From NCBI GenBank assembly GCA_965237675.1, contig OZ250150.1:896001-960000 (forward strand): DNA of 64,000 nucleotides, written 5' to 3'. The position numbers were made by a program, and so were the translations under genes. The stretch is from Candidatus Latescibacterota bacterium (lineage in GTDB: Bacteria; Latescibacterota; UBA2968; GCA-2709665). Positions 11,574 to 44,804 of this stretch are shown piece by piece. The notes beneath the pieces are model-generated. The model ran no database searches and had not been told where the DNA came from. It saw nothing but the letters and a program-made list of their open reading frames with translations. Position 1 is the first letter of the stretch. Each line of letters starts with the position of its first letter.

Positions 11574-11661
11574 CGCAGACCCCTGGGAGCAACCCTTGGT
11601 GTTGACCGCCCACCGACGTGAGGCGAACCGGGGGTTTCGTGAAGTGACGGGAGAATACGAA

Positions 11662-14094: not shown

Positions 14095-14280
14095 CGTTAC
14101 GCTTGTCGAAATGCCCGTGTTTCGCTATCCGTTCGATGCCCTTTGACAGGCCCCGGGACCTCCTTCGCCGACCCTTCGACAAGCTCAGGGAGCGGCTCAG
14201 GGTGCAGGCCCATTGATGTTCGTTGCTTGCGTTGCCTGTGCTAAGCTTGTCGAAACGGCCTGTCGAAGCAAGCTTGACGA
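14095..14280. repeat. REP-like repeat cluster (CCTTCGACAAGCTCAGG family)
   Basis: CCTTCGCCGACCCTTCGACAAGCTCAGGGAGCGGCTCAGGG matches the reverse complement of 63525-63566; GCTTGTCGAAATGCCCG also occurs near 26825. Confidence 0.8.
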
Positions 14281-14377: not shown

Positions 14378-16912
14378 TTGACCGATCAATGGGTACTTCA
14401 GAATAGCGCCTTGATTTTGAGATGGGAGGGTGGGGATCTGCAGGTGGAGAATCGGCTTTCGGGTAAGTGCCGTTCGTTTGACTTTCCCGCATTCATGATC
14501 CGGCTGGGTGAAGTGGAGATTCCGGCGGACCGTTTTGTTCAGACCGGTATGCAGCCTGGCACGGATCAGATGATGTTTGACTATCGGCACGAAGCGACTG
14601 GAATTCGCGTCCAGGTGCGGTACTGGATCGATGGAGACAATCCCTGGTTCAGGAAACAGTTGACGCTTCAGGCGCCGGACAGTCCCAACGCGCCGACGCC
14701 GGACCGGCTATGGGTGGACATACAGGAACAACCTCCGCGGCCGATTCGACGGGTCGGATACGGCGTCCGCGGTGGGCCGGACGTGGAAGAACAGGCCGGG
14801 CTCGACACGTACGCCCCCCCGGTACCGGGATGCGGGTATCCGGTGTGGGCAGGAGACTGGTTCGCCGGCCTGGAACATCCGGTGGGGTTTACGGTTCCTG
14901 GAGAAAAGCTGGAGCTCTTTCACCACCCGGTGTGGGACGACGAAAGGCGAATTGAGAGTTACACCGCGGTCTACGGCGCGGCAGAGAGTCATGAGACCGT
15001 GCGAGACGCGTTTATGGACTATCTGTGGCAGATCCGCCTGCCCCGGCTGTCGAAGCCGATTTTCCATCTTTCCGTGGGATGGTCCGTGCGGTATCTCGGA
15101 AATCGGGAGTATATCGACTCGTTCGAAATGAACCAGGCCTACGCCGACGCGGTATCGGACCTGGGCCTGAAGCCCGACTCCCTGGCGTTTGACGCGGGGT
15201 GGTTCGACCGGAAGTCGATCTACCGGCATAAGGCAGACGACGAGAATGACTCGGGGTTTATCGCGTTTTCCGAAGATCTGAAACAGAAGGGGTTCTCGCT
15301 GGCATTATGGGTGACCCACAATGGGCCGGTGGGTTTTGACACCGATTGGATCCAGGAACAGGGTTGGCGGGTCGGCGAGGGACCCGGCTCCTACGGAAGC
15401 GGGACGTTTGTGGTGATGGCGCAACCGTCCTTCGAAGAAGCCCTGGCGCAGCGCTGGGAGCGGCTGGTGAAAGACGTGGGAGCCGTGCACCTGAAAATCG
15501 ACTGGGACAACGAGTGTGCCACCCATCCTGATTTCCGGGACCGTTTACCCACACCCGATCACATGCGAGAGGCTTCGGTAAACGCGTTCAATCGGATCGA
15601 TCGCCGGCTGCGGGCGGTTAATCCGGACCTGGTGACACGGAACGGGTGGTGGCCGAGCCCCTGGTGGTTGTGCCTGGCGAACCACACCTGGCTGGTTCAT
15701 TCGGGAGATTGTGAGTACGCATCGTGGCCGTCTCGAACCCAGCGAGACCGGGCCCTGACGCATCGGGACGCGGTTTATTATCAGATCATGCGCCGGGCGG
15801 AGACGCCCATCTTTTTCGACGCGTACGACAATCACGAATTCGTGCAGGCATTGACCAATGCGTTTGGAGACCCGGACCATACCTGGCTGGACAATCTTGT
15901 GCTGGCGGCCTGCCGCGGCACCACCTATATGCCGATGCCGGTGAATCCTGAAAGTCTGAGGGCGGAACGGGCTGAACAGCTTCAGTCAATGATGGACTGG
16001 ATGCGTTTCAACGCGGACGAACTGGGCACGAAGGGGACGCAGATGGTGCTGGGGAGTCCGGCCTTCGGCGAAGTCTATGGTTTTCTGCATCCGTCGGATG
16101 GAAGCGCGTGGCTCCTGCTGCGAAATCCCTCCGTCGAGCCGCAGGCGGTGGATCTTGGGGTGGACTACGGGTTGGGATATGTGCCGGACGCCATCCGACA
16201 GGTTTATCCTTTCTGGCAGGACCTGGAAGGGTCGGTGACGATGTTGGGGAACGAAGTACGTCTGCTGAAGATCTTCGCCGACACACAGGAGGACGTTTCT
16301 CCCATACCCGGCGCCCCGTTCATGGCGCGGCTGTGCGATGGCGGGTGTGAATACCTGTTTCCGGGAGACCGGCGGCTTGCGGACAACGTGGGGCCGGTGG
16401 TGCATCCGGATATGCAGATCAACGGTCTTTCCGCCGAGGCAACGTGCGACGACCTGAACGACGGGATGCACAGGATGCAATGGTACGTCGCGGTGCCCCA
16501 CCGATTCGAGCGTCCGGAGCTGCAGGTTGTTCTAGGCGGGCCGGAGAAGGTGCTGGATAGTGTGGACGTCCGCGCCGGCGGATCGCGGTACCGGGGTGTG
16601 CCCGGTTGTTACTCGTACGTGACCCAGCGCATCCACCGGCAGGCCCGCAGCGGCCACGGCACGTCCAGGTTCCTGCCCCCCGTGGGACCGAGGGAACGTG
16701 ACGACTATCTATTCAGCATTCACGACAGCGGATGGTCGTCCGTAACGGTGGATATTACGGGCGACGACCTTGAAGAACTGACGGTAAAGGCCTGGATCAC
16801 GGGGTACGAGGCGCCCGCCAGGCAGACGATTGTCCGGGACAGACCGCCGATGTCGGGCACGTTGCTACCGATGCATCCGTATGGGTTTTCGAGATGTCTT
16901 GAAATCAGGTGA
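14378..16912 (+). CDS. Hypothetical glycoside-hydrolase-like protein (alpha-galactosidase clan-D-like TIM barrel)
   Basis: 844-aa ORF, TTG start after GAGGAG; FDAGWF, LALW and HLKIDWD resemble GH27/36 motifs. Confidence 0.5.
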   Translation: MTDQWVLQNSALILRWEGGDLQVENRLSGKCRSFDFPAFMIRLGEVEIPADRFVQTGMQPGTDQMMFDYRHEATGIRVQVRYWIDGDNPWFRKQLTLQAPDSPNAPTPDRLWVDIQEQPPRPIRRVGYGVRGGPDVEEQAGLDTYAPPVPGCGYPVWAGDWFAGLEHPVGFTVPGEKLELFHHPVWDDERRIESYTAVYGAAESHETVRDAFMDYLWQIRLPRLSKPIFHLSVGWSVRYLGNREYIDSFEMNQAYADAVSDLGLKPDSLAFDAGWFDRKSIYRHKADDENDSGFIAFSEDLKQKGFSLALWVTHNGPVGFDTDWIQEQGWRVGEGPGSYGSGTFVVMAQPSFEEALAQRWERLVKDVGAVHLKIDWDNECATHPDFRDRLPTPDHMREASVNAFNRIDRRLRAVNPDLVTRNGWWPSPWWLCLANHTWLVHSGDCEYASWPSRTQRDRALTHRDAVYYQIMRRAETPIFFDAYDNHEFVQALTNAFGDPDHTWLDNLVLAACRGTTYMPMPVNPESLRAERAEQLQSMMDWMRFNADELGTKGTQMVLGSPAFGEVYGFLHPSDGSAWLLLRNPSVEPQAVDLGVDYGLGYVPDAIRQVYPFWQDLEGSVTMLGNEVRLLKIFADTQEDVSPIPGAPFMARLCDGGCEYLFPGDRRLADNVGPVVHPDMQINGLSAEATCDDLNDGMHRMQWYVAVPHRFERPELQVVLGGPEKVLDSVDVRAGGSRYRGVPGCYSYVTQRIHRQARSGHGTSRFLPPVGPRERDDYLFSIHDSGWSSVTVDITGDDLEELTVKAWITGYEAPARQTIVRDRPPMSGTLLPMHPYGFSRCLEIR

Positions 16913-17013
16913 GGCGGCGAGCGCAAACAGGCTGCGATCGCCCTTCCTGGCTTCGCTCTGCTTAGCAGCAACCCAAAAAGGTGAAAGCGAACCCGCAAGC
17001 CCGTTTGGCGGGC

Positions 17014-17120
17014 TAATCACTCCCCCCTTGAGGGGGGGGAGTCGTAGAAGCCGAGCCGACCCCCTGTGGCTTGTCCTGAACCTGTCGAAGGGCAGGCGAC
17101 GGCTGATGCGGTGGGGGATT
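17014..17120. repeat. Intergenic palindromic repeat with an embedded REP-like unit
   Basis: Hairpin ACTCCCCCCTTGAGGGGGGGAGT followed by CTGAACCTGTCGAAGGG. Confidence 0.55.
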
Positions 17121-17212
17121 TCAACGCCTTGCCGTATGCAAGCGGCATGAAAAAACATGAACGCATTTAGCGTAGAAGTCTTACTGCAAGACTCCAAAAA
17201 GGAGGCTGAGAG

Positions 17213-18091
17213 ATGGCGTTGAGACACGATGCCGAACGGGGCGTGTGGCACTTTGAAACTGAGCAGATGACGGGACACATACAGCCGGACGGGGACCGGC
17301 ATGGGATCAAGGAGTTGACCCATAAGCCCACCGGGGAGCAGGTGGTGCATCCGAAGTACGACCTCCTGAATCTGTTTTTCATGTTTTCACAGAATCACTG
17401 TATGGGGCAGGCTCGTGAGAACGAGCGCACCATTACATCCGAGGGCAATGCGATCGACGTGCACTGGGCGCCAACGGACGATCACAAGGCGGAGATGACG
17501 GCCAGGTACGAAGTTGTCGAACCGAACGCGGTGGACATGTCGATAACCGTGGCGTCCAACTGGCCGTACCCGGCTTATGAAGTGTTTTTGTCGAACTATT
17601 TCGATCTGTCGCTGAGGCCGTACGTGTATGTTCAGGGCAGTCCGTTCGATATTCCGGCAGACCAGGCGCGTTGGATAGCGCCGGAGGTGAACGACGTATT
17701 TGTGGGAACGGGACTGGTATTCTCGAGGGATCAACACGCGGCCAGGCGGTCTACCGACGGGCGATGGGACCGAATCTGGGGCCTCTACCAGTGGAATCCC
17801 CAGCGTTATTTCGAATTGCCGATGATCATGAGCGCGAACCTTGAAAAGGGCGTTGCGGGCGTTCTGATGTCCAGGCCTCAGGATTGTTACGCGGTGATCA
17901 GCGGGTACCAGAGCGAGAACATGAAAGATCCGTTCAGGGATCAGAACCCCCTCTACCTCTCGTTGTTCGGGGATGATTTCCGTGTTGGCGATGAACGGAC
18001 CGTGGAGGTGCGGTTCGCCGTCACCGAAATCGATGAATCGATGGCGCAGCCCCTGGCGTTATACGAAGCGTTCATGGAAGCAAAGGGGTAG
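17213..18091 (+). CDS. Hypothetical protein (possibly galactose-mutarotase-like beta-sandwich)
   Basis: 292-aa ORF with AGGAGG RBS and host-like codon use. Confidence 0.65.
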   Translation: MALRHDAERGVWHFETEQMTGHIQPDGDRHGIKELTHKPTGEQVVHPKYDLLNLFFMFSQNHCMGQARENERTITSEGNAIDVHWAPTDDHKAEMTARYEVVEPNAVDMSITVASNWPYPAYEVFLSNYFDLSLRPYVYVQGSPFDIPADQARWIAPEVNDVFVGTGLVFSRDQHAARRSTDGRWDRIWGLYQWNPQRYFELPMIMSANLEKGVAGVLMSRPQDCYAVISGYQSENMKDPFRDQNPLYLSLFGDDFRVGDERTVEVRFAVTEIDESMAQPLALYEAFMEAKG

Positions 18092-18239
18092 GCGCGGTCG
18101 CGCAGAATACGGGGGCAATCCTCGCCTCTCCCTTCGCCGACCTGCGTCCGACGGGGGACAAGGGCGTCTTTTCAGTACGAGAATGTGCCTGCAGTCATAC
18201 ATATTTGGCCGCAACTCAATGAATCCAACGCCCAGGATC

Positions 18240-18385
18240 CGGAAAATTGATGCCGCACCCACCGTCGCCCGTCCGCCGTATCAGCGCTACTGCGGTGGGC
18301 AGACGCCCGAACCTGAGCCAATATCGCAGCCAGATTTCCCTTGCCTGGGAACGAGAAAATGCCGTTTTTTCTTCCAATCCTATCG
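18240..18385 (+). repeat. Degenerate copy of repeat family A (MITE-like)
   Basis: GCAGACGCCCGAACCTG...GCCAGATTTCCCTTGCCTGGGAACGAGAAAATGCCGTTTTTTCTTC aligns with 45100-45173. Confidence 0.7.
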
Positions 18386-18413
18386 TCCACCGTCAAGAAG
18401 CGAGTAAAGCAAA

Positions 18414-20405
18414 GTGAGAGAATCATCGAAGCGGGGAATGAGCGTCGGCGGCGTTGATCCGTCGATTCTTCGAGAGCTTTCCGGCGTCTACAAGCCATTT
18501 ATCAAAGCATTCAAGGAACTCGTCAGCAACGCGTACGACGCCGACGCGGCCGATGTTTCAATCGAGTTTGCGGACGACTTCACGTCTGCGACCATTGCGG
18601 ATGACGGCAACGGGATGAGTCCGTTTGAGTTTCGATCCGACTTCACGCGGATCGGCGGCAGCAGCAGCAGATGGTCAAAGGGAACGACGCCCCAGAAAAA
18701 GCGAAGCCGCATTGGGAACAAGGGCATAGGCTTCCTTGCACTTGCTCGCTACTGCAATCGGATGGTCGTTACTTCGAGCAGTCCTCGTCAGTTCAAACAA
18801 GAACACTCGGTCGAGACGACGTCACCTTCCATCGACGTCGTCAGCGCTCTCGGAGTACCAATTAGCCCGCAGTTACTCAGCAAAGTGTGTAGGTTTGTCG
18901 TAACGCAATCTGGAAAACGATCGAAGATTGCCGCTACCAACTACGAGTTGAATGCGAATACTGGTCGCCTTGCCTTCAAGGAGGACTTTGGTCCTGTCGA
19001 CATCGCAATTACGATCGACTGCAACAGCTTGGGTTTCCAAGCGACTCTGGACTTTGATCGCTTGCTCAAGCTTGCGGATTCTGCCGACCTCGAAAGGCTG
19101 TCCGATTTCACGTTGATCGAAGTTCGCGAGCTGCCACGGAAGTCAAAGTCCGGAACAACGGTCGCGATAGAAGGATTGAAGTCGTTTGTCAAACGCGAAC
19201 TCAAAGCAGATCGCCGGAAGGGCTTCGTTCGAAATGTTGCGAGTCGTAGCGGGTTTGAACAGGTCGCGTGGCACTTGTCTCGTTGCACGCCAATCGGCTA
19301 CGCGAAGGCACCAGATCAAGCTGAATATCTTGAAGCCCTCTTGGAGGATGCGGCGCCACCGACGCTGGACAAACTGACACTTCGACACGGCAAGACGGAG
19401 AGCGAGTTGACGCGCCCTCTCTATCCGTTCGAGCCGGACGCAGCGACGCTACACAAGGACATGATCACGGAGGTGGACATCAACGAGGGTGGTTTTGTCG
19501 CGAAGGGGTTTGTTCACGGCTACGAAAGCGTCGTGTTCCCATCCGAGTATCGAGGCGTTTCGATAAGGGTGCGTGGTGTCTCCATCGGCGACCCGACGTT
19601 TCTCGGTGCAGAATTCCTCCTAACGGGAGCACATAAGGCCGCGTTGAGCCAGATCACTGGCGAGATAAATGTGCTGAGCGGCATGGACGCGATGGATGCA
19701 ATCAATCCAGGTCGTGAAGGTTTCTATGAAGAGAGTGGTGATTTTCTCGCCCTGCGTAGGTATTTCCGTGGCGACGGTGAAAAGGTTGGCGGCTATCTCG
19801 GCAGAACGATCGACGCCGTCTTGAAACGAAGCCAAGCGAGATCGTCACTCAACAGCACCTTGAGTCGTGCGGCATACATGCGGCGTGCGATGGACGATGT
19901 GTCGGCGGGGATAACACACCTGATGTCCGAGGGAGGAAAAGAAGCGAGCGCGATACGTGAGATGCTCAAGTCGAACAAATCGCACCCGAACGGGTTGGCA
20001 TCCGCGAAGCCGGCAGGATTTGACGTTCCCAACAAAGTGGCCGGAATGGCGGTCAATCAGGCGAGACGTCAATCGGAAGCAGCAGCGATCGACTATGAGA
20101 AAGCACAGGTAACAATCGACGTATCTCGCCCTGAATGGGATAACGCGCTCGTGTTGTTCAAACGGCGGTTCGACGTCATCCACAAGCAGGGCACGGCGAT
20201 TCAACCGATCGCTGAAATCGACTTCAACCAGGACCGTATTCTCGTCAATTGGGGCCACGCTGCAAAGTCGCAGATGGACGAGCGGGGATTCCTGCGGACT
20301 GCCCTAGCATGGGTGCTGGCACGGACAGCAGCCGATGGCGACGCCGATCAGATGATGGAAATGGCCATAACATTGTTATCTTTCACTACGCAGCCCAATG
20401 ACTAA
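18414..20405 (+). CDS. GHKL (MORC/Hsp90-like) ATPase 1
   Basis: KELVSNAYDADA (N box), DDGNGMS (G1), IGNKGIGF (G2), S5-like RVRGVSIG...ITGEI...NPGREGF; start may be ATG 18438. Confidence 0.88.
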   Translation: MRESSKRGMSVGGVDPSILRELSGVYKPFIKAFKELVSNAYDADAADVSIEFADDFTSATIADDGNGMSPFEFRSDFTRIGGSSSRWSKGTTPQKKRSRIGNKGIGFLALARYCNRMVVTSSSPRQFKQEHSVETTSPSIDVVSALGVPISPQLLSKVCRFVVTQSGKRSKIAATNYELNANTGRLAFKEDFGPVDIAITIDCNSLGFQATLDFDRLLKLADSADLERLSDFTLIEVRELPRKSKSGTTVAIEGLKSFVKRELKADRRKGFVRNVASRSGFEQVAWHLSRCTPIGYAKAPDQAEYLEALLEDAAPPTLDKLTLRHGKTESELTRPLYPFEPDAATLHKDMITEVDINEGGFVAKGFVHGYESVVFPSEYRGVSIRVRGVSIGDPTFLGAEFLLTGAHKAALSQITGEINVLSGMDAMDAINPGREGFYEESGDFLALRRYFRGDGEKVGGYLGRTIDAVLKRSQARSSLNSTLSRAAYMRRAMDDVSAGITHLMSEGGKEASAIREMLKSNKSHPNGLASAKPAGFDVPNKVAGMAVNQARRQSEAAAIDYEKAQVTIDVSRPEWDNALVLFKRRFDVIHKQGTAIQPIAEIDFNQDRILVNWGHAAKSQMDERGFLRTALAWVLARTAADGDADQMMEMAITLLSFTTQPND

Positions 20406-21753
20406 GTCTGTCACAGGACACGCACTGCTGAAGCAGGTCCAAAAGGGCGACCGGATACTGCTGGTAAACCCACCGGTGTTCGAGACACGCTATAGCTGGC
20501 TGCGGTGGAATCAACCACTGGACCTACTCAGGATCGGGGCGTACCTCAAAAGCAGCAAGAAGTGCGACGTCGAGTTGTTTGACTTCATGCTACCTAACGA
20601 CAAGGGCCGCGTTCAAAAGCGAGGGTTGACGGGACAAGAACGGTACAAAAAGGTCGGTGACGGAGACTTCGCCTACACATATCCGATGTGGAAATTCGGA
20701 AAACCCTTCGATGCACTCAATGACTGGCTGGTCGAGCGACGTGCCGGCAACAAGCGAGGCGAGCCAACTCAAGTGTGGATCACTTCGCTGTGCAGCTATT
20801 GGTACGCCAGCATTCACCAATTATGCACGAAGCTACGCCTTTGGTTGCCAGACGCGAAACTGGCTGTGCTGGGCAACTACCCACGATTTATGGTGGACAA
20901 CGCAGTGGACTTCTGCGATGCAGACCTGATCGTCAGGACGCCACTTAAACATGCCGACAAGGGATCATCTCTGAGGCTCTACGGAGCCGAGAAACCTCCA
21001 TTCATTTCGGTCACTCTCAATCCACCTACAGCCATCCCTGCGATCAAGGAAGCAATCGAACTGGGAGTATTTCACGTTGCCGTGTTTGATGGCGAGGACG
21101 ACATTTGCCGCGACAAGGGCAAGCCACTTCGAGAGATCGTCGAAAGCACGAAGAACTTCCACCAGCACCTACGTTTTCATGCGGTATCGGGACTACATCC
21201 CGAACGGGTCACTTCAGAATTAGCGAAAGTGTTCGTGGAACGAGCGTTCGCGGAGCTGTTTTTTGAGCAGTCCGAGGAGGAATTGGAGTTAGACGAGGCG
21301 GCATACGAGCAGTGTCGCGCCTACCTGCTGGAAGCGGGGATTGATCTTTCAGATGGAGGCAAAACCTGCGGATTCGTGTGGATTGGACGCCCGGACGAAA
21401 CACTGGAAGGGATCGTCCGTCGTAGTTTCACCGTTCTCAGCACGTTTGGGAGTGTCATCCTCAAGCCGTACACGGCCGTACCGGGAACAGGGCTGTACGA
21501 ACGGCACAAAGATTATCTGGACGATCTTACGTACGCTGATCTGTCCCCACACAGATTTCCGTTCGCCGAGTACAATGGAATCACCCGGAACGAATACCAT
21601 GACCTCTACAGAATGGCGGCGTTCCTCAACGAGAAAGTACGCAACCGGTCTTTCGACTTATTGAACGGCAGTATGGGTGCCGAGTTGCTGCGAAACAGTT
21701 TACGTCTCGAGGTTTGGAATCTTGAAACGTCCCCCCTCAGCATTATTGATTAG
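20398..21753 (+). CDS. B12-binding radical-SAM-like protein lacking the CxxxCxxC motif
   Basis: ILLVNPP..W..PLDLLRIG, VWITSLCSYWY, LGNYP, YTAVPGT; paralogous to the downstream gene; no CxxxCxxC anywhere; overlaps the upstream stop. Confidence 0.8.
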   Translation: MTKSVTGHALLKQVQKGDRILLVNPPVFETRYSWLRWNQPLDLLRIGAYLKSSKKCDVELFDFMLPNDKGRVQKRGLTGQERYKKVGDGDFAYTYPMWKFGKPFDALNDWLVERRAGNKRGEPTQVWITSLCSYWYASIHQLCTKLRLWLPDAKLAVLGNYPRFMVDNAVDFCDADLIVRTPLKHADKGSSLRLYGAEKPPFISVTLNPPTAIPAIKEAIELGVFHVAVFDGEDDICRDKGKPLREIVESTKNFHQHLRFHAVSGLHPERVTSELAKVFVERAFAELFFEQSEEELELDEAAYEQCRAYLLEAGIDLSDGGKTCGFVWIGRPDETLEGIVRRSFTVLSTFGSVILKPYTAVPGTGLYERHKDYLDDLTYADLSPHRFPFAEYNGITRNEYHDLYRMAAFLNEKVRNRSFDLLNGSMGAELLRNSLRLEVWNLETSPLSIID

Positions 21754-23290
21754 CCCGCCTGTCTACGACGTACAATATTGGGCGAACTGGAGCATGCCCT
21801 ATGGCTTGTTGCGTGTCGCATCGTGGCTTCAGGGCAAGGGCTACATGCTGAAGCTGATCGACGGTATGGAGGCTAACAAGCGGCGTACCGTGCCAAAGCA
21901 GAAGCGATGTGTACGAAAACTCTGCTCAGCGGACGAACCGTTCACGCCGGACAAGTGGACGGACTACGAACCGCAGCCTGACGAAAAGATCGAGTACGTG
22001 TTCGGCATGCCGCTAAAGGAACTGCGGAAACGGCTCGAAGCGATCAAGGCACGTGCAAGGTATGCGCGTGAATCGCTGTTCGACGAAGTGGCCTTTCCAG
22101 ATCCAGATGAAATCTGGATTTCGTCTATCATGACGTACTGGTGGGAAAGCACTCGCGACGTGATCCAAGTCTGTCGGCAAGTATTTCCGAAGGCCGTTTT
22201 CCGCGTTGGTGGAATCTATCCGACGCTCATTCCCGAACACGCGATGCAGAACCTCGGGTTGAATGATCCACTGCACTTAATGGGTCGTGACCTTGATCCG
22301 CTTAATGCCAAGCAGAAGAAGCGTGACATCGTAGTGTCCGCAACGATTCCCGATGCGAATCCGCTCCCACTTGCGATTGAGTTGTACGACAAGGACGGTG
22401 CGGGCGACGACGAAGAAGGCGAAGAAGGCGAGAGGTTGCCCGATTACCTCATCATGACGACGAGTCGTGGCTGCCCTTTCAAATGTTCTTACTGTTCGGC
22501 TAACGTTTTGAACGAAGGACGAAAGATCTGGGTTCGGGAATACGAGGTTGCGTACGATGAGATCAAGCGACGGTTTGAGCAAGGAATTCGCGAATTCTGT
22601 TTCTACGAGGACAACCTGCTGCTCGGCAGAGAGAATTTCAAGCAGCTTTGCCGACTGATTCGTGACGATCGCGATTTGAAAGGGATCGAGCTGTACGCAC
22701 CAGAGGGCATCGAAGTCCGCCTGCTGCACGAAGACACCGTCCAACTGATGCGTGATGCTGGCTTCAAGAAGCTCTACCTGCCGCTCGAAACCGTCAACGC
22801 CAACATGGCGAAATCGTGGCAACGCACGCACACGAACATGGACAAATTCTTCTACGCGTTGCGTAACGCGGAAAAGGCCGGCTTCAAGCTGCGATGCCAA
22901 GACATCAACTGCTTCATCCTCTTCGGCCTGCCAGACGAAGACCTGCAAGCGGTGTACGACACAATCACATTTGCCTCAAGCCGTGTCGGCTCCGTGATTC
23001 CCATGCTTTTCACTCCAGTGCCAAGCACGCCATTGTTCGAGCAGTACCGACCGTACATCGAAGACAAAGGTTTCGATCTACACCACTTGAATGGAAAGCT
23101 GCTCCCTTTCCTCGATTACAATCGCCGCAAGTACACGTCGTTATCAGTACACGACTACAACTCAATCGAAGGGTTGATGTGGAGACTTAATGCGAAAGTT
23201 CGCAACGCGAGTTTCAATCTCGGAGGAGATGGCCGAGTGGCGAGGGCGTTCCGAGACGTGTACAACGCGCTGGAACCGATGTCCGTCTGA
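21722..23290 (+). CDS. Cobalamin-dependent (class B-like) radical SAM protein
   Basis: LLISPP, PYGLLRVA, IWISSIMTYWW, VGGIYPTL, TTSRGCPFKCSYC, FYEDNLL, ILFGLP, FTPVPST; TTG 21722 is the likely start. Confidence 0.92.
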   Translation: MKRPPSALLISPPVYDVQYWANWSMPYGLLRVASWLQGKGYMLKLIDGMEANKRRTVPKQKRCVRKLCSADEPFTPDKWTDYEPQPDEKIEYVFGMPLKELRKRLEAIKARARYARESLFDEVAFPDPDEIWISSIMTYWWESTRDVIQVCRQVFPKAVFRVGGIYPTLIPEHAMQNLGLNDPLHLMGRDLDPLNAKQKKRDIVVSATIPDANPLPLAIELYDKDGAGDDEEGEEGERLPDYLIMTTSRGCPFKCSYCSANVLNEGRKIWVREYEVAYDEIKRRFEQGIREFCFYEDNLLLGRENFKQLCRLIRDDRDLKGIELYAPEGIEVRLLHEDTVQLMRDAGFKKLYLPLETVNANMAKSWQRTHTNMDKFFYALRNAEKAGFKLRCQDINCFILFGLPDEDLQAVYDTITFASSRVGSVIPMLFTPVPSTPLFEQYRPYIEDKGFDLHHLNGKLLPFLDYNRRKYTSLSVHDYNSIEGLMWRLNAKVRNASFNLGGDGRVARAFRDVYNALEPMSV

Positions 23291-23371
23291 TTGGCTACGT
23301 CAAGTCACTGGTGGTTCGACCTGTGGCGGATAGAGCTCGACTCGCGGGATCATCCCGTCCAATCGACGTAG

Positions 23372-23603
23372 CGGATAGTTGATTATCTCTGCGAGAGATT
23401 TTGCTTGCGTCAGGTCGGGCAGAGCTCCCGTTTGCTTCAGGAATTCGGCATAGAAGTGAACTCCCAGGTGAACGATTCCAGATATCGTCAAATGTTGTGG
23501 ATGGCGGCGAGAGGACCATGACGGATTAACCGGCGGCTTTGATGTCTCTGTCCTGGAATTCAACGTCTTGGACGAGGAGTTCAAAGAGTTTGTGACTGTG
23601 TAA
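23372..23603 (+). pseudogene. Possible frameshifted 3' remnant of a lost gene
   Basis: RIVDYLCERFCLRQ...QMLWMAAR, then shifted frame EDHDGLTGGFDVSVLEFNVLDEEFKEFVTV-stop; no start codon. Confidence 0.3.
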
Positions 23604-23676
23604 TCGCCATTGGAAAAGTTGATCAGGATACTTAATCAGAGATTACCTTATTTCATACAGTGAAAGACTCGACCAT

Positions 23677-25539
23677 ATGATTCAGAATGAACGCCAAACG
23701 CGGCGAGTTCAGCTAGAGAGTTGGGAGGTGGGCGGGGAGCTATTAGACATCCTCTCTCGAGGCTTGTACTCCGATGCAAAAGACGCACTCAGGGAATACG
23801 TCCAAAACGGAGTCGATGCTGAAGCCGAACACACTCTCATTACGGTTGATGGCTCCCAAGCAGTGATAAGAGATGATGGCCATGGCATGGATGAAGAGGG
23901 CATCCGGATCGCTCGACGATTTGGAATGTCTGAGAAAAGCCCTAGAGAAATGGTCGGATACCGCGGCATCGGCATCTATTCGGCATTCGGCATTTGCGAG
24001 GAAATGACGATCACTAGCCGCCAGGCGGGTATGGATAACCTAGTAGGTTGGACCTTCCAGTTTGGTGAAATGCGCCGACTCCTCGAAGCAGATAAAGCTT
24101 CTGATGCCCGTCATGGTGTTGGCCTACCCGACCTCATGTATCAGTACAGTGAGTTGTTCGTTGAACCTTACCACGGCAATGCGGACGATCACTTTACTGT
24201 TGTGGAGATCGATGGATTGGGTGAAGAATACAGAGCCCAGCTAAACAACGCGGGAGAAGTCAATGATTATCTTCTGAATACGATTCCTGTAGCTTTCTCG
24301 GAGGATGGTTATGGCGACACGGTCAATGGATGGCTCGCAGATTACGTAGACCTCAATCCAGTTCGGATTACTCTTCGAATCGCCGACGAGAGCGAGATCA
24401 ACGTCCATCCGCCAGTCGCCAAAGGCGTGTACAGTCCCGAATCTGACTGGATAAGGGCACCGGACGATACGCCGTTGGCATTCGTGTGGTACGCCCTGTC
24501 CACTAATGGCAAACAGCTTCCCATGCATGAGGGTTCCGAGGTCAGTGGCTTCCTAATGAAGGTGAAAGGGTTCACATTAGGAAATCGACTTGCGCTCAAA
24601 GGGCTTTGGCCAGCCGTTGGTGGGGGAACTTTATACCATCACTATACAGGGGAGGTGCATATTCTGGCGACCGACCAAATCTATCCGAATGCTGCTCGGA
24701 ATGATTTGGAATCTAGTCCGGCTAGGCAACTGTTTGTGAAGCAGGCCGAAGATTTCTTTTATCCCCTCAGCCGGAAAGCTCGGGCTATGCAGGCGATGAC
24801 TAGGGGAGATCGCCTTCTTGAGGGAATTGATCATACAATCAAACAGTTAGCGGGACTAAAAGATGCGCCGAACGCAGACATATTCGAGGTATATAGAAGC
24901 AGCGAGAACTATCGGAAAGAACTAGAGAATGTGCATCAACAGATCGAGAGCCATAAGAGAAAGCCTCGCGGGCGGCCGCGAGTGCAATTCGATGAAGTAC
25001 AACAACGATTATTGGACAATGTCACCAAAAGGCTTCAAGGCGCTATCAGCCAATTAGGTGGAGTAGCTAGGGCCGCGCAAAAAAGTACGGAAAGACAAAG
25101 AAGAAGAGCTACTCAACCTCCTCCTCAAGAAAGACTACTTTACAGCGCACTTAGTGCTACATTGCGAGCAGCGGATAAGACCGACGATCCCCGGTTTAAG
25201 GAAGCGGCAGAGGCCTTGGTATCTTCGATTAATAGTAGATCAGTTCCGAGGACTATAGGGATTCTTGACGAACTTAAGGCTGCAGGAGTCGAACTCGGTA
25301 CCGAAGTGGAGTCGTCTAGGAGGGAGTTGAGGGCCTCATTAGGTTGGTCTCCTTTGGCACCAGTTTCACTGGGTGAGGCGTTGACGCAGCAAGGGGTTTC
25401 GTTAGAAGGCAAGCATGAGGAGAGCCTTGTAAAGGCAATCGACCGAGGTCTGGTGGTCGGGCTGGGTGGAAGAGGTGAGAGATATGAAACTGTGCTACGA
25501 GCTATAGTTGAAGCGATTGCCGAGGAAATGGGGAGCTAG
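23677..25539 (+). CDS. GHKL (MORC/Hsp90-like) ATPase 2 with helical C-terminus
   Basis: GLYSDAKDALREYVQNGVDA, DDGHGM, GYRGIGIYS, KVKGFTLG...YTGEVHI...PNAARND. Confidence 0.9.
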   Translation: MIQNERQTRRVQLESWEVGGELLDILSRGLYSDAKDALREYVQNGVDAEAEHTLITVDGSQAVIRDDGHGMDEEGIRIARRFGMSEKSPREMVGYRGIGIYSAFGICEEMTITSRQAGMDNLVGWTFQFGEMRRLLEADKASDARHGVGLPDLMYQYSELFVEPYHGNADDHFTVVEIDGLGEEYRAQLNNAGEVNDYLLNTIPVAFSEDGYGDTVNGWLADYVDLNPVRITLRIADESEINVHPPVAKGVYSPESDWIRAPDDTPLAFVWYALSTNGKQLPMHEGSEVSGFLMKVKGFTLGNRLALKGLWPAVGGGTLYHHYTGEVHILATDQIYPNAARNDLESSPARQLFVKQAEDFFYPLSRKARAMQAMTRGDRLLEGIDHTIKQLAGLKDAPNADIFEVYRSSENYRKELENVHQQIESHKRKPRGRPRVQFDEVQQRLLDNVTKRLQGAISQLGGVARAAQKSTERQRRRATQPPPQERLLYSALSATLRAADKTDDPRFKEAAEALVSSINSRSVPRTIGILDELKAAGVELGTEVESSRRELRASLGWSPLAPVSLGEALTQQGVSLEGKHEESLVKAIDRGLVVGLGGRGERYETVLRAIVEAIAEEMGS

Positions 25540-25547
25540 GGGAGGCA

Positions 25548-26564
25548 ATGGCAAGAAGGCGCGGTCGTCGACGAGGAAACTACTATTCCAGTGAAGAGAA
25601 GAACGTAGTTAGAGAAAAGTATGATTATCCGTTGGTCAAGGCAGCAGCTCGTAGAAAAAAGGGGGGAATCAGGTATTTTGGCATGCCGGGCGAGGAAGCC
25701 CTGGACTTACACAGCTGGGGCGGACTCTGCGAGTACGTAGCTGCTGTGGAATTCAGCGACGAAAGGTTTCAGTACGTAAAGCATGTACTGAGAACCCAGT
25801 TTGGCAGCATACGCCATCGAGCCCATTTAGGAGACGTCGACAAGGTTATCTTGAGAAACAAAAGTGGGAACCCACCTTCGGAATTTGTCTCAACCACTTT
25901 CCGATGCGGCGCTGGGTACATATGGGATTTTGACGTCATATACCTAGACTACTTTGGCAAATTCCTGCCTCATAAACACGGTGGCTCAGTTGTTCGAAAC
26001 AGAGCGAATGCGCTTAGACGCCTTTTCGCTACTGATCGCCAAGATGCATGGCAACCGTGGCTCTTAATGCTTACGGTTGAGTCCACGCTTTTCGGTTCTA
26101 ATGACAGGAAACAAATGCGACAGTTCTTGTCCGCTTCAATAGAAGAAGCGGATGCGGAAACGGAAGATGCTATTAACTTCCTGCTACATGATACGGCGTG
26201 TAAAGAGCAAGAGGCAACTAGGCTGGTTCACGGTACATTGAGCTATTTGATTGCTTTGGCCGCAAGCAATTCCGACGTCCGCGTATCGCCCAGACCGACC
26301 GTTCTGTACAGAGGGGCAAACGACACTCCGATGTTGCATTTTGCATATGAGGTGGCTCCTTCTGAAGTGTTGTCGGGTTCTCATCCGGCATTACCCTTGC
26401 TCCGGTCTCCTTTACTGCAGGTAAGGAACGATTATATGGAGCCGTGGTTCGAACTATTGCCTGCTCAACCGCCTGGGCAGACTGACTCCGTTATACGTAA
26501 AGCATTGGATTTTCTCGACGAGGATCAAGTCGAGCAAATTCTATGTGGGCGACGGACGACGTAA
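25548..26564 (+). CDS. Uncharacterised protein with predicted SAM-methyltransferase-like Rossmann fold
   Basis: RYFGMPGEEALD, VAAVE, GDVD, FDVIYLDYFG, LLMLT pattern; GGGGAGG RBS; follows ATPase 2 directly. Confidence 0.65.
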   Translation: MARRRGRRRGNYYSSEEKNVVREKYDYPLVKAAARRKKGGIRYFGMPGEEALDLHSWGGLCEYVAAVEFSDERFQYVKHVLRTQFGSIRHRAHLGDVDKVILRNKSGNPPSEFVSTTFRCGAGYIWDFDVIYLDYFGKFLPHKHGGSVVRNRANALRRLFATDRQDAWQPWLLMLTVESTLFGSNDRKQMRQFLSASIEEADAETEDAINFLLHDTACKEQEATRLVHGTLSYLIALAASNSDVRVSPRPTVLYRGANDTPMLHFAYEVAPSEVLSGSHPALPLLRSPLLQVRNDYMEPWFELLPAQPPGQTDSVIRKALDFLDEDQVEQILCGRRTT

Positions 26565-26789
26565 AGCCCCCAATTGGACAAGAACGAGAACCTTCGGGCT
26601 CAGGTTCCGGCCGGCGGTGTTATTCTGGAGCCGACGTTGCCGGGCTACCCACCAAAGACCCGAATGCGCTAGGTCCACCCGGTAGCGGATGGAGTTATCG
26701 AGAGAGGCCCTCTGCTGCGCTGGCAGAGAGCCTTTTCTTGAGAGCAATGTCGGCGTCATTGACCCGGCTTCGTCCTTTATGTAGGATGT

Positions 26790-26865
26790 AGAAACGTGGT
26801 CATTGCGTGCGTCGCTTGCGCTGAGCTTGTCGAAATGCCCGCGTTTCGCTACCCTTCGATACCCA
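26790..26865. repeat. REP-like repeat (same family as 14095 and 63520)
   Basis: GAAACGTGGTCATTGC...GCTGAGCTTGTCGAAATGCCCGCGTTTCGCTACCCTTCGATACCC. Confidence 0.75.
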
Positions 26866-26871: not shown

Positions 26872-27642
26872 TCACGGCATCCAGATATTCCACTTGCCAT
26901 GCTTTTCCCAGATGCGGCAGGTGTCACAGGTGCACATCCACCGGAGTGCGAAACGCGGCTTGTTGCCTGTATTCAGAGATCCGGCGTGTATCAGCAGATA
27001 GTAAAAAAACAGTACGTCTCCCCGTGACGGCCTCAACTCAACCGGCGCTCCCAGTTCGAACTTTTGCTGCGGGTTCTTGAAATCCGACAGCATTCGATAC
27101 CGGTCGGGGTCCTGCACTGCCGCCTCGCCGAGCTTCCGATGGGACCCCGGCCAGACCGCGGTACCGCCACCCTGCGCGACACCCGAATCGAGATAGGTCA
27201 GTGATGAGACGCGGAATGATCCTGGAAAAACGCTGAAAGGTCGATGAACACCATCGGCATGCCCGCTGTGATGATTCCATTTTCCGGAGACCGGAAATAC
27301 ACATCGTGTCCACACTGCCTCGGGCTGTGGTTTCTGACAATGAAATGCCTCTTCATTTTCCCTTGCCAATTGGCTCTGCGCTTCGTAAAACGTGGGAGTA
27401 CAACAAGCCAGTAACGCAGGGTCCTGGAGCCCGAAATGTTCAATCACCCCCTGGCTGGCAACTGTTGTCACCTCGTCTGTATCGTCCGGTAGAGGAGACC
27501 ACGAAGCCGGATCGTCCCGATCCATACCCAGGACAGACCACATCGCCTCCTCTGCGCCGGCAATTGTCTCTTCCGGAATTAAGCCCGACACCAGCACATA
27601 CCCGTCCCGGTCATATTGCGCCATTTGTTCTTGTGAAAGCAT
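26872..27642 (-). CDS. Phytanoyl-CoA dioxygenase (PhyH) family protein
   Basis: MLSQEQ..YDRDGY, HAD, GGTAVWPGSH, GDVLFF, HAGSLN...RFAL. Confidence 0.88.
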   Translation of the reverse strand: MLSQEQMAQYDRDGYVLVSGLIPEETIAGAEEAMWSVLGMDRDDPASWSPLPDDTDEVTTVASQGVIEHFGLQDPALLACCTPTFYEAQSQLARENEEAFHCQKPQPEAVWTRCVFPVSGKWNHHSGHADGVHRPFSVFPGSFRVSSLTYLDSGVAQGGGTAVWPGSHRKLGEAAVQDPDRYRMLSDFKNPQQKFELGAPVELRPSRGDVLFFYYLLIHAGSLNTGNKPRFALRWMCTCDTCRIWEKHGKWNIWMP

Positions 27643-27938
27643 GGATTCCTCCCGGGTAGATCGAATTTTGTACAGGAAAAATAAGGCGCCGATCATTCAC
27701 TCGAAGAAAAGCGTTAAAAAATCCAATAGGACACCCCTCCCGTCACGAAACCTGCCGAAAAACCGAAAAATTCTCTCGTCAATTTCTGTTATACGCCCAT
27801 TTCAAATGGTATGGTTTTCTGAAAATTTTATATTTTTCGATGTGGAAAAATCGTAAATGGTGAATTAAGAATGGAGCGATCGGGAGAGGAGTGAGGAAAA
27901 GTATTGTGGGATTTAGTTTGATTTTTGGCAGATTCTTG

Positions 27939-38305: not shown

Positions 38306-38363
38306 TTAGATTTTCCTCGTGTGCAAACTTCACTTCCCGTCGGCTAACATTGTATATAGTTCC

Positions 38364-38572
38364 CATTGTAAAGGATTTCGGCGCGTTTCCGGCGTCAACC
38401 CGATACTCCCGCCACACGTCTCCCCGGCAGTCCCGCTCCTGCGGAGCGCAGATGCCCGGACCTGTCCCATTTCCCGCCAGATTCCCCTTGCCTGTGAAGG
38501 AGAGAACGTCGTATTTTCTTCCTATACGCCAACAATACACCAGGCTTGCAACGGCTCCGCAGGGTTGCGCCA
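38364..38572 (+). repeat. Repeat family A (MITE-like), copy left of the methylase island
   Basis: Near-identical direct repeat of 45015-45224. Confidence 0.92.
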
Positions 38573-38699
38573 TATCCAGAACATTTCAACGGAGGCACGA
38601 GGTGATCCAGAGAGGTCTTTCGGAAATCCTTTCTGTTCAGACCCTGTTCCCTCCATTTGATTCAATTGCCTAAGTCCAACGACATCAGGTGTAGGTGTT

Positions 38700-42227: not shown

Positions 42228-42239
42228 ATAGGTAGCACA

Positions 42240-42683
42240 ATGGACACCCGGACTCAAGAAGAGCGGAGCCGGATAATGGCAGCCGTTCATAGCAAAGACA
42301 CTAGACCGGAGTTATTGGTACGTCGCTTCTTGTGGTCGAAGGGTATACGATATCGACTGCATGCTGCCAACGTGCTAGGCACACCGGACATCGCTGTGCG
42401 GCGACATAGATTGGCGATATTCGTTCACGGCTGTTTCTGGCACGGCCATGAGGGATGTTCAAGGGGCAGGCTTCCGAAATCTAGGTTAGAGTACTGGGGT
42501 ACCAAGATCGATGCCAACAAGTGCAGAGATGCGGCGACCGCGGAGCAATTGAGTCTGGAAGGTTGGCATCGGCTAGTGATCTGGGAATGTCAACTAAGGA
42601 CGCAACAGGCTGCTGCTATTGCTTTGCCCCAACTATGGAGTGAAATCCGTTCGATATGTCCGGAAATCGGACAGACTCAATAG
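42240..42683 (+). CDS. vsr: Very short patch repair endonuclease
   Basis: RSRIMAAV.SKDTRPE, GTPDI, FVHGCFWHGH, IWEC. Confidence 0.95.
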   Translation: MDTRTQEERSRIMAAVHSKDTRPELLVRRFLWSKGIRYRLHAANVLGTPDIAVRRHRLAIFVHGCFWHGHEGCSRGRLPKSRLEYWGTKIDANKCRDAATAEQLSLEGWHRLVIWECQLRTQQAAAIALPQLWSEIRSICPEIGQTQ

Positions 42684-44801: not shown

Positions 44802-44804
44802 TAG
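43713..44804 (+). CDS. IS630 transposase
   Basis: [33 protein letters not shown]. Confidence 0.95.

Follow-up and report, generated by a model that had tools for sequence, protein, structure and literature searches.

A mobile five-gene cassette combining GHKL ATPases with a radical-SAM pair: a possible DNA-acting conflict system in Latescibacterota

What might a bacterium do with two GHKL ATPases, a pair of radical-SAM-like proteins and a methyltransferase-fold protein encoded side by side? Such a group lies at positions 18414-26564 of the 64,000-nucleotide stretch of a Candidatus Latescibacterota genome analysed here (the window), where an initial annotation from the DNA alone had called five co-directional genes, all of which we confirmed as open reading frames. 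The answer that we tentatively favour, at a little under an even chance, is that the whole group was acquired horizontally as a single cassette and encodes a conflict system, so far undescribed, that is restriction-modification-like and directed at DNA. Its function, its substrate and any use of cobalamin are inferred.

A mobile insert at a variable site

The five genes belong to the mobile accessory part of the genome, and the place where they sit varies in content between genomes of the genus. Comparison with empty sites in genomes of the same genus delimits a whole inserted cassette of 8,771 bp (18093-26863, no strand assigned), bordered on one side by a conserved gene for 292 aa (17213-18091) and on the other by a PhyH-family gene on the minus strand (26872-27696). 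Two genomes of the genus, G009 and G014, join window base 18092 to 26864 with a 6-nt gap; in another (G002) the flanks of the cassette adjoin each other, and a further one (G010) has the cassette. The same integration site in genome G008 holds other cargo, 4.9 kb long, which includes a ThiF/E1-like gene that matches PADLOC E1-E2 models at 6e-18. A search of 14 other genomes of the genus found an orthologue of RB, the radical-SAM enzyme encoded by the third gene, in three; there was none in seven genomes from the family's other genera or in 31 from the next family, and RB was absent from the phage and plasmid collections and the viral contigs searched. GC3 is 0.63-0.66 in g1-g3 and 0.49-0.50 in g4-g5, lower than the 0.67-0.76 of nine upstream genes, which bears out the early impression that codon use in the cassette was unlike that of host genes.

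Repeats had been reported on both sides of the genes (18240 and 26790), and elements do exist at both places, but they are two different dispersed elements and we rejected them as a matching flanking pair. Comparison of the window with itself by blastn places a non-coding element upstream of the genes and within the insert (18285-18374, plus strand) that resembles a stretch upstream of katG (45086-45173) at about 82% and is related to 38363-38598. A search of the window's own genome found no copies beyond these; alignment A3 of the element includes the related locus L001. The insert's right edge carries a short dispersed REP-like repeat (26791-26864, no strand assigned) with a copy at 14101-14141 and many short copies in same-genus genomes.

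Five proteins in two conserved gene groups

The first gene (g1; 18414-20405, plus strand) encodes G1, a predicted GHKL ATPase of the MutL/Hsp90/MORC type with 663 aa (HATPase_c_3, 2.6e-15). A profile matches PMS1, MutL, Hsp90 and MORC in their N-terminal ATPase domains only, its N-box, DxGxG and GxxGxG residues are invariant across 16 orthologues, and its C-terminal part of ~530 aa is uncharacterised. A second such protein, G2 (g4; 23677-25539, plus strand; 620 aa; HATPase_c_3, 2.1e-14, with invariant residues in alignment A5), has a middle GEIH...P...R motif, a long charged segment of low conservation and a small C-terminal domain. The two are related to each other (hhalign 99.3%). The annotation of two GHKL ATPases is thus upheld, and by their motifs both are predicted to be MutL/MORC-type enzymes with every ATP-binding motif kept.

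The first three genes had been described as overlapping. RA, the 451-aa product of g2 (20398-21753, plus strand), shares 8 nt with g1 (20398/20405). RB (g3; 21722-23290, plus strand) has two possible starts, GTG at 21677 or TTG at 21722; the g2/g3 overlap (21722/21753) is plausible because the TTG start suits RB homologues of ~520 aa. RB is a predicted radical-SAM enzyme (Radical_SAM, 1.6e-16) in which all radical-SAM core residues are kept, including a CPFKCSYC motif; its Cys triad is shared by all 39 RB sequences. RA is its paralogue (BLASTP 3e-14; hhalign 100%) and has no Pfam match; CxxxCxxC was found in none of the RA-position ORFs listed, 38 of which, the window's included, make up the RA set. 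The label 'radical-SAM-like' for g2 was therefore correct, since RA is a paralogue of RB without the CxxxCxxC loop, and 'paired B12-radical-SAM' is to be read as one active and one dead copy. The match of RB's N-terminal B12-binding-like domain is sub-threshold (4.2e-4; 20.6 bits against a Pfam cut-off of 32.1). By profile the best solved relative of RB is AprD4 (6fd2, 1.4e-7), which is a dehydratase and not a methylase. We found 1007 homologues of RB, about 100 of them at 66-96% identity, and it is the most conserved component, at 70-72% identity across phyla compared with about 26% for G2.

P5, encoded by g5 (25548-26564, plus strand; 338 aa), is assigned to the PF28273/PP_RS20740 family by an NCBIfam match below cut-off (PP_RS20740_fam, 3.3e-9) and by precomputed PF28273 on its homologues; PDB and local Pfam gave no match. 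The Rossmann or methyltransferase fold first suggested for it is probably of the class-I methyltransferase-like kind, judging from a single Atlas model of P0241, a homologue from an RA-RB-G2-P5 locus that is 26% identical over its full length. The structural neighbours of that model, at TM 0.55-0.60, are tRNA and rRNA methyltransferases, Trm1 (0.58 and 0.55) and RlmI-like.

We followed the linkage of these genes in related loci. Most of these come from metagenome bins, in which taxon labels may be mistaken and contigs wrongly assigned. The RB-side set comprises 52 loci, counted with our own crude ORF picks and HMMs, and 39 of these genome loci have both RA and RB. RA lies directly upstream of RB, adjacent and co-directional, in 36 of the 39; wherever G1 and RA are both present (23/23), G1 immediately precedes RA; and a related GHKL ATPase (of the G1, G2 or c6 family) lies within 10 kb in 36 of the 39. 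In the GHKL-free exceptions (L017, L018 and L031) an Eco57I/N6-type methylase lies no more than 10 kb away, and in L018 it is adjacent. On the P5 side, where 33 metagenome loci were collected, all 26 metagenome loci having both genes, and 18 of 20 genome loci, place G2 immediately before P5. Of the 23 metagenome loci with at least 1 kb downstream of P5, 22 have an adjacent radical-SAM gene from the superfamily of RB, and so does L077; these genes cover three subfamilies (hhalign with RB, 99.7% for Rc and 95% for X536). The initial annotation had proposed to look for linkage of the radical-SAM gene to both GHKL ATPases and to the gene at 25548, and such linkage is observed. G1-RA-RB and G2-P5 are kept as fixed gene groups across many phyla, and a functional link among the genes of the cassette is supported from the radical-SAM side and from the P5 side.

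Genomic company and relation to described systems

No match to a named system was found in PADLOC v2, NCBIfam or the literature searched, and domain and profile searches of the five genes found no precursor peptide, NRPS/PKS, transporter, classical DNA methylase or recognisable nuclease; on both points the first reading of the DNA was sound. Related loci usually carry genes beyond the five, and these usual neighbours are predicted DNA-modification, restriction or defence genes. They encode a DGQHR/DndB/DpdB-like protein (1.2e-40), matches to the DndH C-terminus (5e-43) and to mad8 (8.6e-22), a PglX/MAD2-like methylase module (beside RA-RB in 6 of the 52 loci), an Eco57I-type methylase (1.6e-40), an HNH protein, an SPL-like radical SAM protein, a Tiamat-like TmtA (4e-88), DUF5131 (PDC-M41B, 1.7e-124; immediately after P5 in 5 of 11 related loci having both), and ResIII and UvrD helicases. 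Through the DGQHR, DndH-C/mad8-like and MAD2/PglX-like members the related loci resemble Dnd, Dpd and MADS, whose multi-gene modification-plus-restriction logic the cassette may share. Unlike those systems, the window's cassette has none of these three kinds of gene, no equivalents of DndACDE, DpdA or MAD1-7 were seen, and its candidate modification enzymes are radical-SAM proteins.

The restriction-modification operons with prokaryotic MORC/paraMORC GHKL ATPases (Iyer, Abhiman and Aravind 2008, PMC2292703) have in common with the cassette MutL-like GHKL ATPases with intact ATP-binding motifs and a patchy, laterally spread distribution, and share with its related loci a linkage to methylases, HNH nucleases and helicases. 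The word 'radical' is absent from that paper, and the operons described there differ from the cassette, whose conserved enzymes are a radical-SAM pair and not Dcm/Vsr or SF-II helicase/nuclease sets, and which has two GHKL paralogues per system. A classical example lies in the window itself, a second island at 38.7-43.6 kb with Dcm, GHKL, Methyltransf_35, Vsr and HNH, in which the order of GHKL and then methyltransferase fold mirrors G2-P5; P5 is only distantly like Methyltransf_35 (hhalign 2.4% against the single sequence; TM 0.57 for the Atlas model of P0241).

RB is like the class B type enzymes PhpK, HpnJ, BchE and AprD4 in placing a Rossmann-type domain N-terminal to a radical-SAM core with CxxxCxxC, and its best NCBIfam and PDB relatives belong to the B12-binding-domain radical-SAM group, with NCBIfam scores all far below cut-off. 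Unlike them, it has its own invariant signature, which includes SIMTYWWEST, GGIYPTL and FYEDN, is always paired with a cluster-less paralogue, and has DNA-directed neighbours in place of metabolite pathways. The DUF5131 and TcmP 'radical SAM mobile pair' (PADLOC candidates PDC-M30 and PDC-M41) likewise joins a radical-SAM-superfamily protein to a partner of ~300 aa, but the window's cassette has no DUF5131, and RA and RB are of a different radical-SAM family. We rejected P5 as a TcmP (hhalign 0.2%; no match to PDC-M30A or M41A). The window's genome holds two classical DUF5131 and TcmP pairs elsewhere.

Viperins are single small radical-SAM enzymes that act on NTPs. Ophion consists of a radical-SAM enzyme with PHP and PRTase (bioRxiv 10.1101/2025.09.30.679545). 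In prokaryotic viperins and in Ophion alike the essential anti-phage component is a radical-SAM enzyme; unlike the cassette, neither is known to include a B12-like domain, a dead paralogue, GHKL ATPases or P5.

Competing readings and a proposed mode of action

It is unlikely, in our estimate, that the radical-SAM pair is a weapon and not a marker. The GHKL proteins would clamp invader DNA and RB would take hydrogen from a base or from deoxyribose, leaving a break or lesion that halts replication and makes a classical nuclease unnecessary, while self DNA would be marked by P5 or a co-resident methylase. The absence of a recognisable nuclease from the five genes agrees with this, as does the putative methyltransferase-like fold of P5; the PglX/MAD2-like module could self-mark, and SPL-like and DUF5131 radical-SAM relatives, which are of families tied to DNA, co-occur. 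Our literature search, however, gave no precedent of radical-SAM DNA cleavage in defence, nor do we know of one, and the high conservation of RB relative to G2 suits housekeeping-like catalysis equally with an effector.

It is likewise improbable that the pair's target is a free nucleotide, an RNA (tRNA or rRNA) or a protein and its product an antiviral or signalling molecule, in the manner of viperins, with the ATPases as sensors. Nucleotide-acting radical-SAM defence enzymes such as viperins and Ophion offer a parallel, and the modelled neighbours of P5 act on tRNA and rRNA. Yet the partners of the pair are predicted MutL/MORC-type ATPases and DNA-directed families (DGQHR, DndH-like, PglX-like and HNH), and the related neighbourhoods conserve no nucleotide kinase, PRTase or cyclase.

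We think it more doubtful still that G1-RA-RB and G2-P5 are two independent systems, neighbours in a defence hotspot. The 386-nt gap between g3 and g4 holds the relic of a reversed P5 gene of the L001-L003 type, of which the final 54 codons are left (23300-23461, minus strand), 83% identical by BLASTP to residues 229-282 of the L001 P5. The window's G1-RA-RB is 90-96% identical to that of L001 and L002, and nucleotide homology stops at 23461 for these loci and at 23460 for L003; all three carry a different, reversed G2-P5 pair, the G2 of L001 being only 29% identical to the window's. Such a pattern marks g4-g5 as a separately exchangeable cassette, and since G2-P5 was exchanged independently of G1-RA-RB the modules could be separable. 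The difference in GC3 between them points the same way, as does L057, a locus where G2-P5 stands without a radical-SAM gene across the 10 kb upstream and 1.7 kb downstream that were covered. Against independence stand the radical-SAM genes, of three subfamilies, that adjoin G2-P5 in nearly all informative metagenome loci, the related GHKL ATPases of most RA-RB loci, and the entry or loss of both modules at the site together as a single 8.8-kb unit.

A natural-product or RiPP tailoring cluster built on a B12-type radical-SAM enzyme is very improbable. In its favour are weak NCBIfam matches of RB to PhpK, HpnJ, AprD4 and ApyD-type enzymes and, among those neighbours of the 52 loci that were scanned, one NRPS gene, identified in L015 only (3 kb downstream, opposite strand). 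The matches are all far below cut-off (e.g. 52.9 bits against 600), related neighbourhoods conserve neither a precursor peptide nor a transporter or scaffold enzyme, and the conserved neighbours, unlike the metabolite clusters that the initial annotation had named as counter-evidence, are DNA-directed families.

The restriction-modification-like reading remains the one that we prefer, and the anti-phage or epigenetic role first proposed is partly supported, by linkage, mobility, DNA-directed neighbours and the lack of a named match. The exchange of G2-P5 pairs, the E1-E2-like cargo that G008 holds at the same site and the parallel GHKL and Methyltransf_35 pair of the window's second island also count in favour of our reading. 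In such a system RA and RB would form a heterodimer, and G1 and G2, in the scaffold or sensor role suggested for them, would be ATP-driven DNA clamps that, by analogy with MutL and MORC, recruit the enzymes to DNA. P5, with its putative Trm1/Methyltransf_35-like fold, would bind SAM and either transfer a group to a base or read one. RB would next functionalise an unactivated carbon of that base or sugar through 5'-deoxyadenosyl radical chemistry, and methylation would be possible if its N-terminal domain binds cobalamin. The conventional N6-methylase module of several related loci fits less well with RB as the self-marking enzyme. Restriction could reside in the uncharacterised C-terminal parts of G1 or G2, as in the GHKL-bearing HgiDII/BbrUII-type enzymes, or in other loci, and an unusual DNA mark would tell self from invader DNA.

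Composition of the five-gene cassette

Five co-directional open reading frames occupy positions 18414-26564 of the window. The first (g1, 18414-20405, 663 aa) and the fourth (g4, 23677-25539, 620 aa) encode proteins with GHKL ATPase domains that match HATPase_c_3 above cut-off (2.6e-15 and 2.1e-14, respectively); we call their families G1 and G2. The second gene (g2, 20398-21753, 451 aa; family RA) is a paralogue of the third and matches no known family. The third (g3, 21677 or 21722-23290; family RB) has a Radical_SAM core (1.6e-16) and a sub-threshold B12-binding match, while the fifth (g5, 25548-26564, 338 aa; family P5) shows a weak NCBIfam match to the PP_RS20740 family. Genes g1 and g2 share 8 nt. 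Starting g3 at the TTG codon at 21722 gives it a length like that of its homologues and a 32-nt overlap with g2, and the gene layout and overlaps described in the initial annotation were therefore correct.

RB belongs to the radical SAM superfamily: it carries CPFKCSYC at residues 266-273 and scores 61.3 bits against a Radical_SAM cut-off of 29.5. RA has neither a CxxxCxxC motif nor a Pfam match and so lacks both of these marks. The motif is present in 39 of 39 RB sequences and in none of the RA-position ORFs inspected (the RA set comprises 38), and the entire cluster-binding loop is missing from RA. The two proteins are nevertheless related, with BLASTP matches in their N- and C-terminal parts (3e-14 and 7e-13) and a family-to-family hhalign value of 100%. 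We infer that RA and RB form an active/dead heterodimer. As regards the class B cobalamin-dependent radical-SAM methyltransferases, which carry an N-terminal cobalamin-binding domain, the N-terminal stretch of RB matches the B12-binding family PF02310 at 4.2e-4 (20.6 bits, below the 32.1-bit cut-off), and precomputed PF02310 assignments exist for a few RB homologues. Its closest solved relative by profile is AprD4 (1.4e-7). In NCBIfam, PhpK, HpnJ and other models match RB far below cut-off, as do the methylase models (PhpK, HpnR and TsrM-type), and RB has invariant motifs peculiar to itself.

G1 and G2 are Bergerat-fold ATPases, in which the residues of the N-box (E..N..D), DxGxG and GxxGxG motifs are invariant across the 16 G1 and 19 G2 sequences aligned. 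The families are homologous over about 300 columns (hhalign 99.3%). A profile search with G1 found ATPase N-domains only, those of PMS1, MutL, Hsp90 and MORC2/3/4, and gave no match for the remaining 500 or so residues. A GEI(H/N)...P...R motif is kept after the ATPase domain in both families, where MORC/paraMORC ATPases would have an S5-fold transducer domain with a conserved basic residue; no model or structure match covers this region. In NCBIfam both proteins score highest, though far below cut-off, with the N-terminal region of BbrUII/HgiDII-family restriction enzymes, which are similar in length to G1 and G2.

P5 matches the uncharacterised PP_RS20740 family at 3.3e-9 (36.5 bits against a cut-off of 200), and its own family numbers 937 representative clusters at E <= 1e-3 among 1.84 billion. 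The PDB returned nothing for P5, by single sequence or by profile; the local Pfam search gave no match for g5, and 17 members shared no family there (four unrelated families, one member each, E 0.013-0.46). No fused longer form was seen, an observation of little weight. The structure Atlas holds a model (pTM 0.80) of a homologue, P0241, that is 26% identical to g5 over its full length and appears to be the P5 of related locus L027. This model resembles Trm1 clusters (TM 0.58 and 0.55), Methyltransf_35 (TM 0.57, feature score 0.93) and RlmI-like methyltransferase clusters (TM 0.47). P5 keeps GLPG, VE and NLD(F/Y)xGG motifs, presumably at the places expected of methyltransferase motifs I, II and IV. 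Read from the homologue model, P5 is a putative protein of the class I SAM-dependent methyltransferase fold (Rossmann type, Trm1/Methyltransf_35-like). Its likeness to the Methyltransf_35 protein encoded elsewhere in the window is faint and confined to motifs.

Conserved linkage and exchangeable parts

A pattern scan for RB, taking one genome per species, yielded 52 loci in which ORFs were called crudely and clustered, and family HMMs were built. Because the scans used a few peptide patterns, the frequencies are lower bounds. RA and RB occur together in 39 of the 52 loci. Those left out comprise distant single radical-SAM genes with 25-35% identity and other neighbours, treated as another family (L037, L045, L046, L048, L050, L051, L052), contigs of 3.7 kb or less (L016, L038, L039, L042), a fragmented locus (L043), and L008, where an opposite-strand ORF was picked though tblastn detects RA. 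In 36 of the 39 loci RA is the gene immediately before RB; G1 immediately precedes RA in 23 of 23, and G2 immediately precedes P5 in 18 of 20. The initial annotation's proposal hinged on conserved linkage of the radical-SAM gene to GHKL ATPases, and this linkage was found: at least one such ATPase (G1, G2 or the c6 family) is no more than 10 kb away in 36 of the 39 loci with RA and RB. The three that lack one all encode an Eco57I/N6-type methylase at a distance of up to 10 kb; in L018 it is adjacent.

By record title the carriers of RA and RB span at least 12 phylum-level labels, which need care because most are from error-prone metagenome bins. Cultured Bacillota are included, with titles naming Paenibacillus, Aneurinibacillus, Tumebacillus and Bacillus pinisoli. 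RB is identical under the labels Anaerolineaceae and Caldisericales (L022/L023) and identical or nearly so under Anaerolineae and Victivallis (L021/L026); these pairs point to a very recent transfer or else to contigs placed in the wrong bin. A quick tree (SH-aLRT support, several long branches) was used only for the split between G1-linked and G1-less clades.

A metagenome scan with the P5 alignment gave 33 loci. Here G2 precedes P5 in 26 of the 26 loci that hold both, and a radical-SAM gene adjoins P5 in 22 of the 23 with at least 1 kb downstream, as well as in the partial locus L077; the exception is L057. These radical-SAM genes make up two further subfamilies. Rc is a single convergent gene of about 450 aa with a weak B12-binding match, and X536 is co-directional, in the arrangement 'G1< c5> G2> P5> X536> G2'>', where c5 is another ORF family. 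Both are homologous to RB (hhalign 99.7% for Rc and 95% for X536). Three components therefore form the conserved core, namely a GHKL ATPase, P5 and a radical-SAM enzyme of the B12-domain type; in the window, G1 and the dead paralogue are joined to this triad.

About 14 metagenome loci (within L067-L086) share a recurrent six-gene variant without RA or RB. Its genes encode a G1-like ATPase in reverse orientation, an ATPase resembling DndH and mad8, G2, P5, a single radical-SAM protein of 536 aa with the motif CIRKCSFC, and another G2-like ATPase.

The cassette is modular. In loci L001 and L002 the G1-RA-RB proteins are 90-96% identical to those of the window and the G2-P5 pair is reversed; the L001 G2 is only 29% identical to the window's. 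Positions 23300-23461 of the window correspond to the last 54 codons of a reversed P5 of the L001/L002 type (83% identical), and nucleotide homology ends at 23461 against L001 and L002 and at 23460 against L003. Judged from this relic and the end of homology, the present g4-g5 pair replaced an older one, in agreement with the lower GC3 of g4-g5 (0.49-0.50, compared with 0.63-0.66 for g1-g3 and 0.67-0.76 for nine upstream genes). In Planctomycetota loci identity to the window is 70-72% for RB, 51-55% for G1, 45-49% for RA and about 26% for G2. In 10 of 10 loci c6 stands directly next to a following c12 or c13. This third gene pair could be a remote form of G2-P5, no more than a lead, suggested by hhalign matches of c6 to G2 (56.6%, N-box region only) and of c13 to P5 (29%, E 6e-4, 216 columns).

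The insertion site and its surroundings

The cassette is a discrete mobile insert (18093-26863). In two genomes of the same genus that lack the cluster, G009 and G014, window base 18092 is joined to base 26864 with six bases between; in a third, G002, some 70 nt separate the flanks. The cluster is present in G010, with 82% nucleotide identity; besides this genome and G000, the same-genus carriers are G006 and G013. At the same site G008 has a different cargo of 4.9 kb (1838-6774 of L090, G008:C1:3116500-3125000). Its products are a 507-aa protein that fits no known family, a Cro/C1-type HTH protein, and a protein of ThiF/E1-like type with a match to the PADLOC E1-E2 models at 6e-18. This position resembles a hotspot for cargo of conflict systems. 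Of 14 other same-genus genomes searched, 3 have an RB orthologue; none was found in 7 genomes of the family's other genera or in 31 of the next family, and two weak matches in the same class (about 1e-21) proved to be other radical-SAM genes. RB gave no tblastn match at 1e-10 in plasmid and phage collections and none in viral contigs searched with two peptide patterns.

The repeats reported in the initial annotation near 18240 and 26790 exist, but they are two unrelated dispersed elements and not a flanking pair, so we rejected them as att-like island ends. No direct or inverted repeat pair bounding the cassette was found. The window has no Rfam match that reaches its gathering threshold, and predicted promoter and terminator sites were no more numerous than in shuffled sequence. 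A REP-like repeat at 26791-26864 is short and has many copies, one of them at 14101-14141; it differs from the dispersed repeat at 16949-17197, between genes for 844-aa and 292-aa proteins, which is present dozens of times in each same-genus genome. Three units, the G1 operon, a Dcm island and katG, are each preceded by a non-coding element some 90-150 nt long (at 18285-18374, 38363-38598 and 45014-45250, respectively). The element is also kept upstream of G1 in L001 (6541-6706); no further copies were found in the window's genome. Possible roles are a promoter or regulatory region common to these units, or a site of recombination.

The Dcm island is a second low-GC island of the window (38363-45250), with a direct repeat of 237 nt at either end (38363-38598 and 45014-45250, 90% identical), the right-hand one extending into the start of the catalase-peroxidase gene at 45140-47386. 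It encodes Dcm (38700-39857), a GHKL ATPase (39832-41259), Methyltransf_35 (41256-42227), Vsr (42240-42683), HNH_2 (42744-43640) and a DDE_3 transposase (43653-44804). Elsewhere in the window, two large paralogous genes (3557-5971 and 11557-14076; 804 and 839 aa) share 66% nucleotide identity over about 890 nt. Neither the 839-aa copy nor the neighbouring 844-aa gene (14378-16912) has a Pfam match; they are kept with the flank in L003-L005. A 290-nt direct repeat lies at 53973-54262 and 59457-59746 (95% identity).

Relation to known systems and a possible mode of action

The initial annotation did not recognise the locus as a named system, and this judgement stands. PADLOC-DB v2.0.0 gave domain-level matches only, namely short GHKL-domain matches (REase_II, TmtA, MzaB) and PDC-M51A at 0.006, with none for g2 or g5; PADLOC v2 found nothing for the X536 and Rc variants. 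No NCBIfam model matched at cut-off in scans of the cassette and related loci, and a search of openly available papers found none with this gene combination. The cassette is not a DUF5131-TcmP pair (PDC-M30/M41): g5 is not TcmP-like, having no TIGR04474 match and an hhalign value of 0.2% between the P5 profile and a genuine TcmP of the same genome, and the cassette has no DUF5131 gene. The only two DUF5131 matches in that genome, at 2.19 Mb of contig C1, form two tandem DUF5131 + TcmP pairs (7560-11951 of L056, G000:C1:2184000-2202000) that correspond to the PADLOC candidates PDC-M30 and PDC-M41.

We class the cassette as a new variant among the MORC/paraMORC-type restriction-modification-like systems. 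The second island of the window is a classical operon of this type, with the GHKL ATPase followed by Methyltransf_35 between Dcm and Vsr/HNH, and its two-gene order is the same as that of G2-P5. The enzymes at the core of the cassette, in contrast, are radical-SAM proteins; the MORC paper (PMC2292703) nowhere uses the word 'radical'. Ophion and Ambrosia (10.1101/2025.09.30.679545) are built of parts other than those of the cassette. The enzymatic core is without described precedent.

The genes that accompany the family in related loci include DUF5131 (the same family as the PADLOC candidates PDC-M41B and PDC-M30B, 1.7e-124), an ATPase that resembles the DndH C-terminus (5e-43) and mad8 (8.6e-22), a DGQHR protein of the DndB/DpdB kind in Bacillota loci (1.2e-40), PglX/MAD2-like and Eco57I-type methylases, HNH, a Tiamat-like protein (4e-88), an SPL-like radical-SAM protein, and ResIII and UvrD helicases. 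DUF5131 is itself a radical-SAM-superfamily family, placed on RadicalSAM.org beside spore photoproduct lyase (PMC9477430). An NRPS gene was seen near one related locus, on the other strand. These neighbours are DNA modification and restriction company, not metabolite pathways, and they count against the rival explanation that the cassette is a metabolite cluster.

What we observed is linkage, mobility, intact catalytic motifs and DNA-directed neighbours. Our main reading, to which we give a little less than an even chance, is a restriction-modification-like system that uses radical-SAM chemistry on DNA to make an unusual self/non-self mark. In such a system RA and RB would work as an active/dead heterodimer, the GHKL ATPases might, like MutL and MORC, act as DNA clamps driven by ATP, P5 would bind SAM, and RB would apply 5'-deoxyadenosyl-radical chemistry to DNA, leaving the mark by which self is told from non-self. 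Wybutosine synthesis offers an analogy: there, a hypermodified base is built by a radical-SAM enzyme acting together with enzymes of the class-I methyltransferase fold. A more novel scheme, which we regard as less likely than not, is a restriction-type immunity based on radical chemistry. MORC-like ATPases would load the B12-domain radical-SAM heterodimer on DNA, where it would either write a carbon-linked mark made by no known methylase or damage invader DNA by hydrogen abstraction, and the Trm1-like methyltransferase-fold protein with its own ATPase would be an exchangeable specificity cassette. Rival to the marking of DNA are the readings that the radical-SAM pair is a DNA-damaging effector, that it acts on nucleotides or RNA, and that two separate systems stand side by side.

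The cassette is compact at 8.8 kb, sister genomes provide natural empty-site controls and there are cultured carriers; the question is therefore directly testable. If the reading as a restriction-modification-like system is true, it would be the first of its kind with conserved B12-domain-type radical-SAM enzymes, and would entail marking of DNA at an unactivated carbon or, alternatively, damage of foreign DNA by radicals; to our knowledge, and in the literature searched, neither is known in bacterial immunity. The prokaryotic MORC-type ATPases, relatives of eukaryotic chromatin silencers, would thereby gain a defined enzymatic partner.
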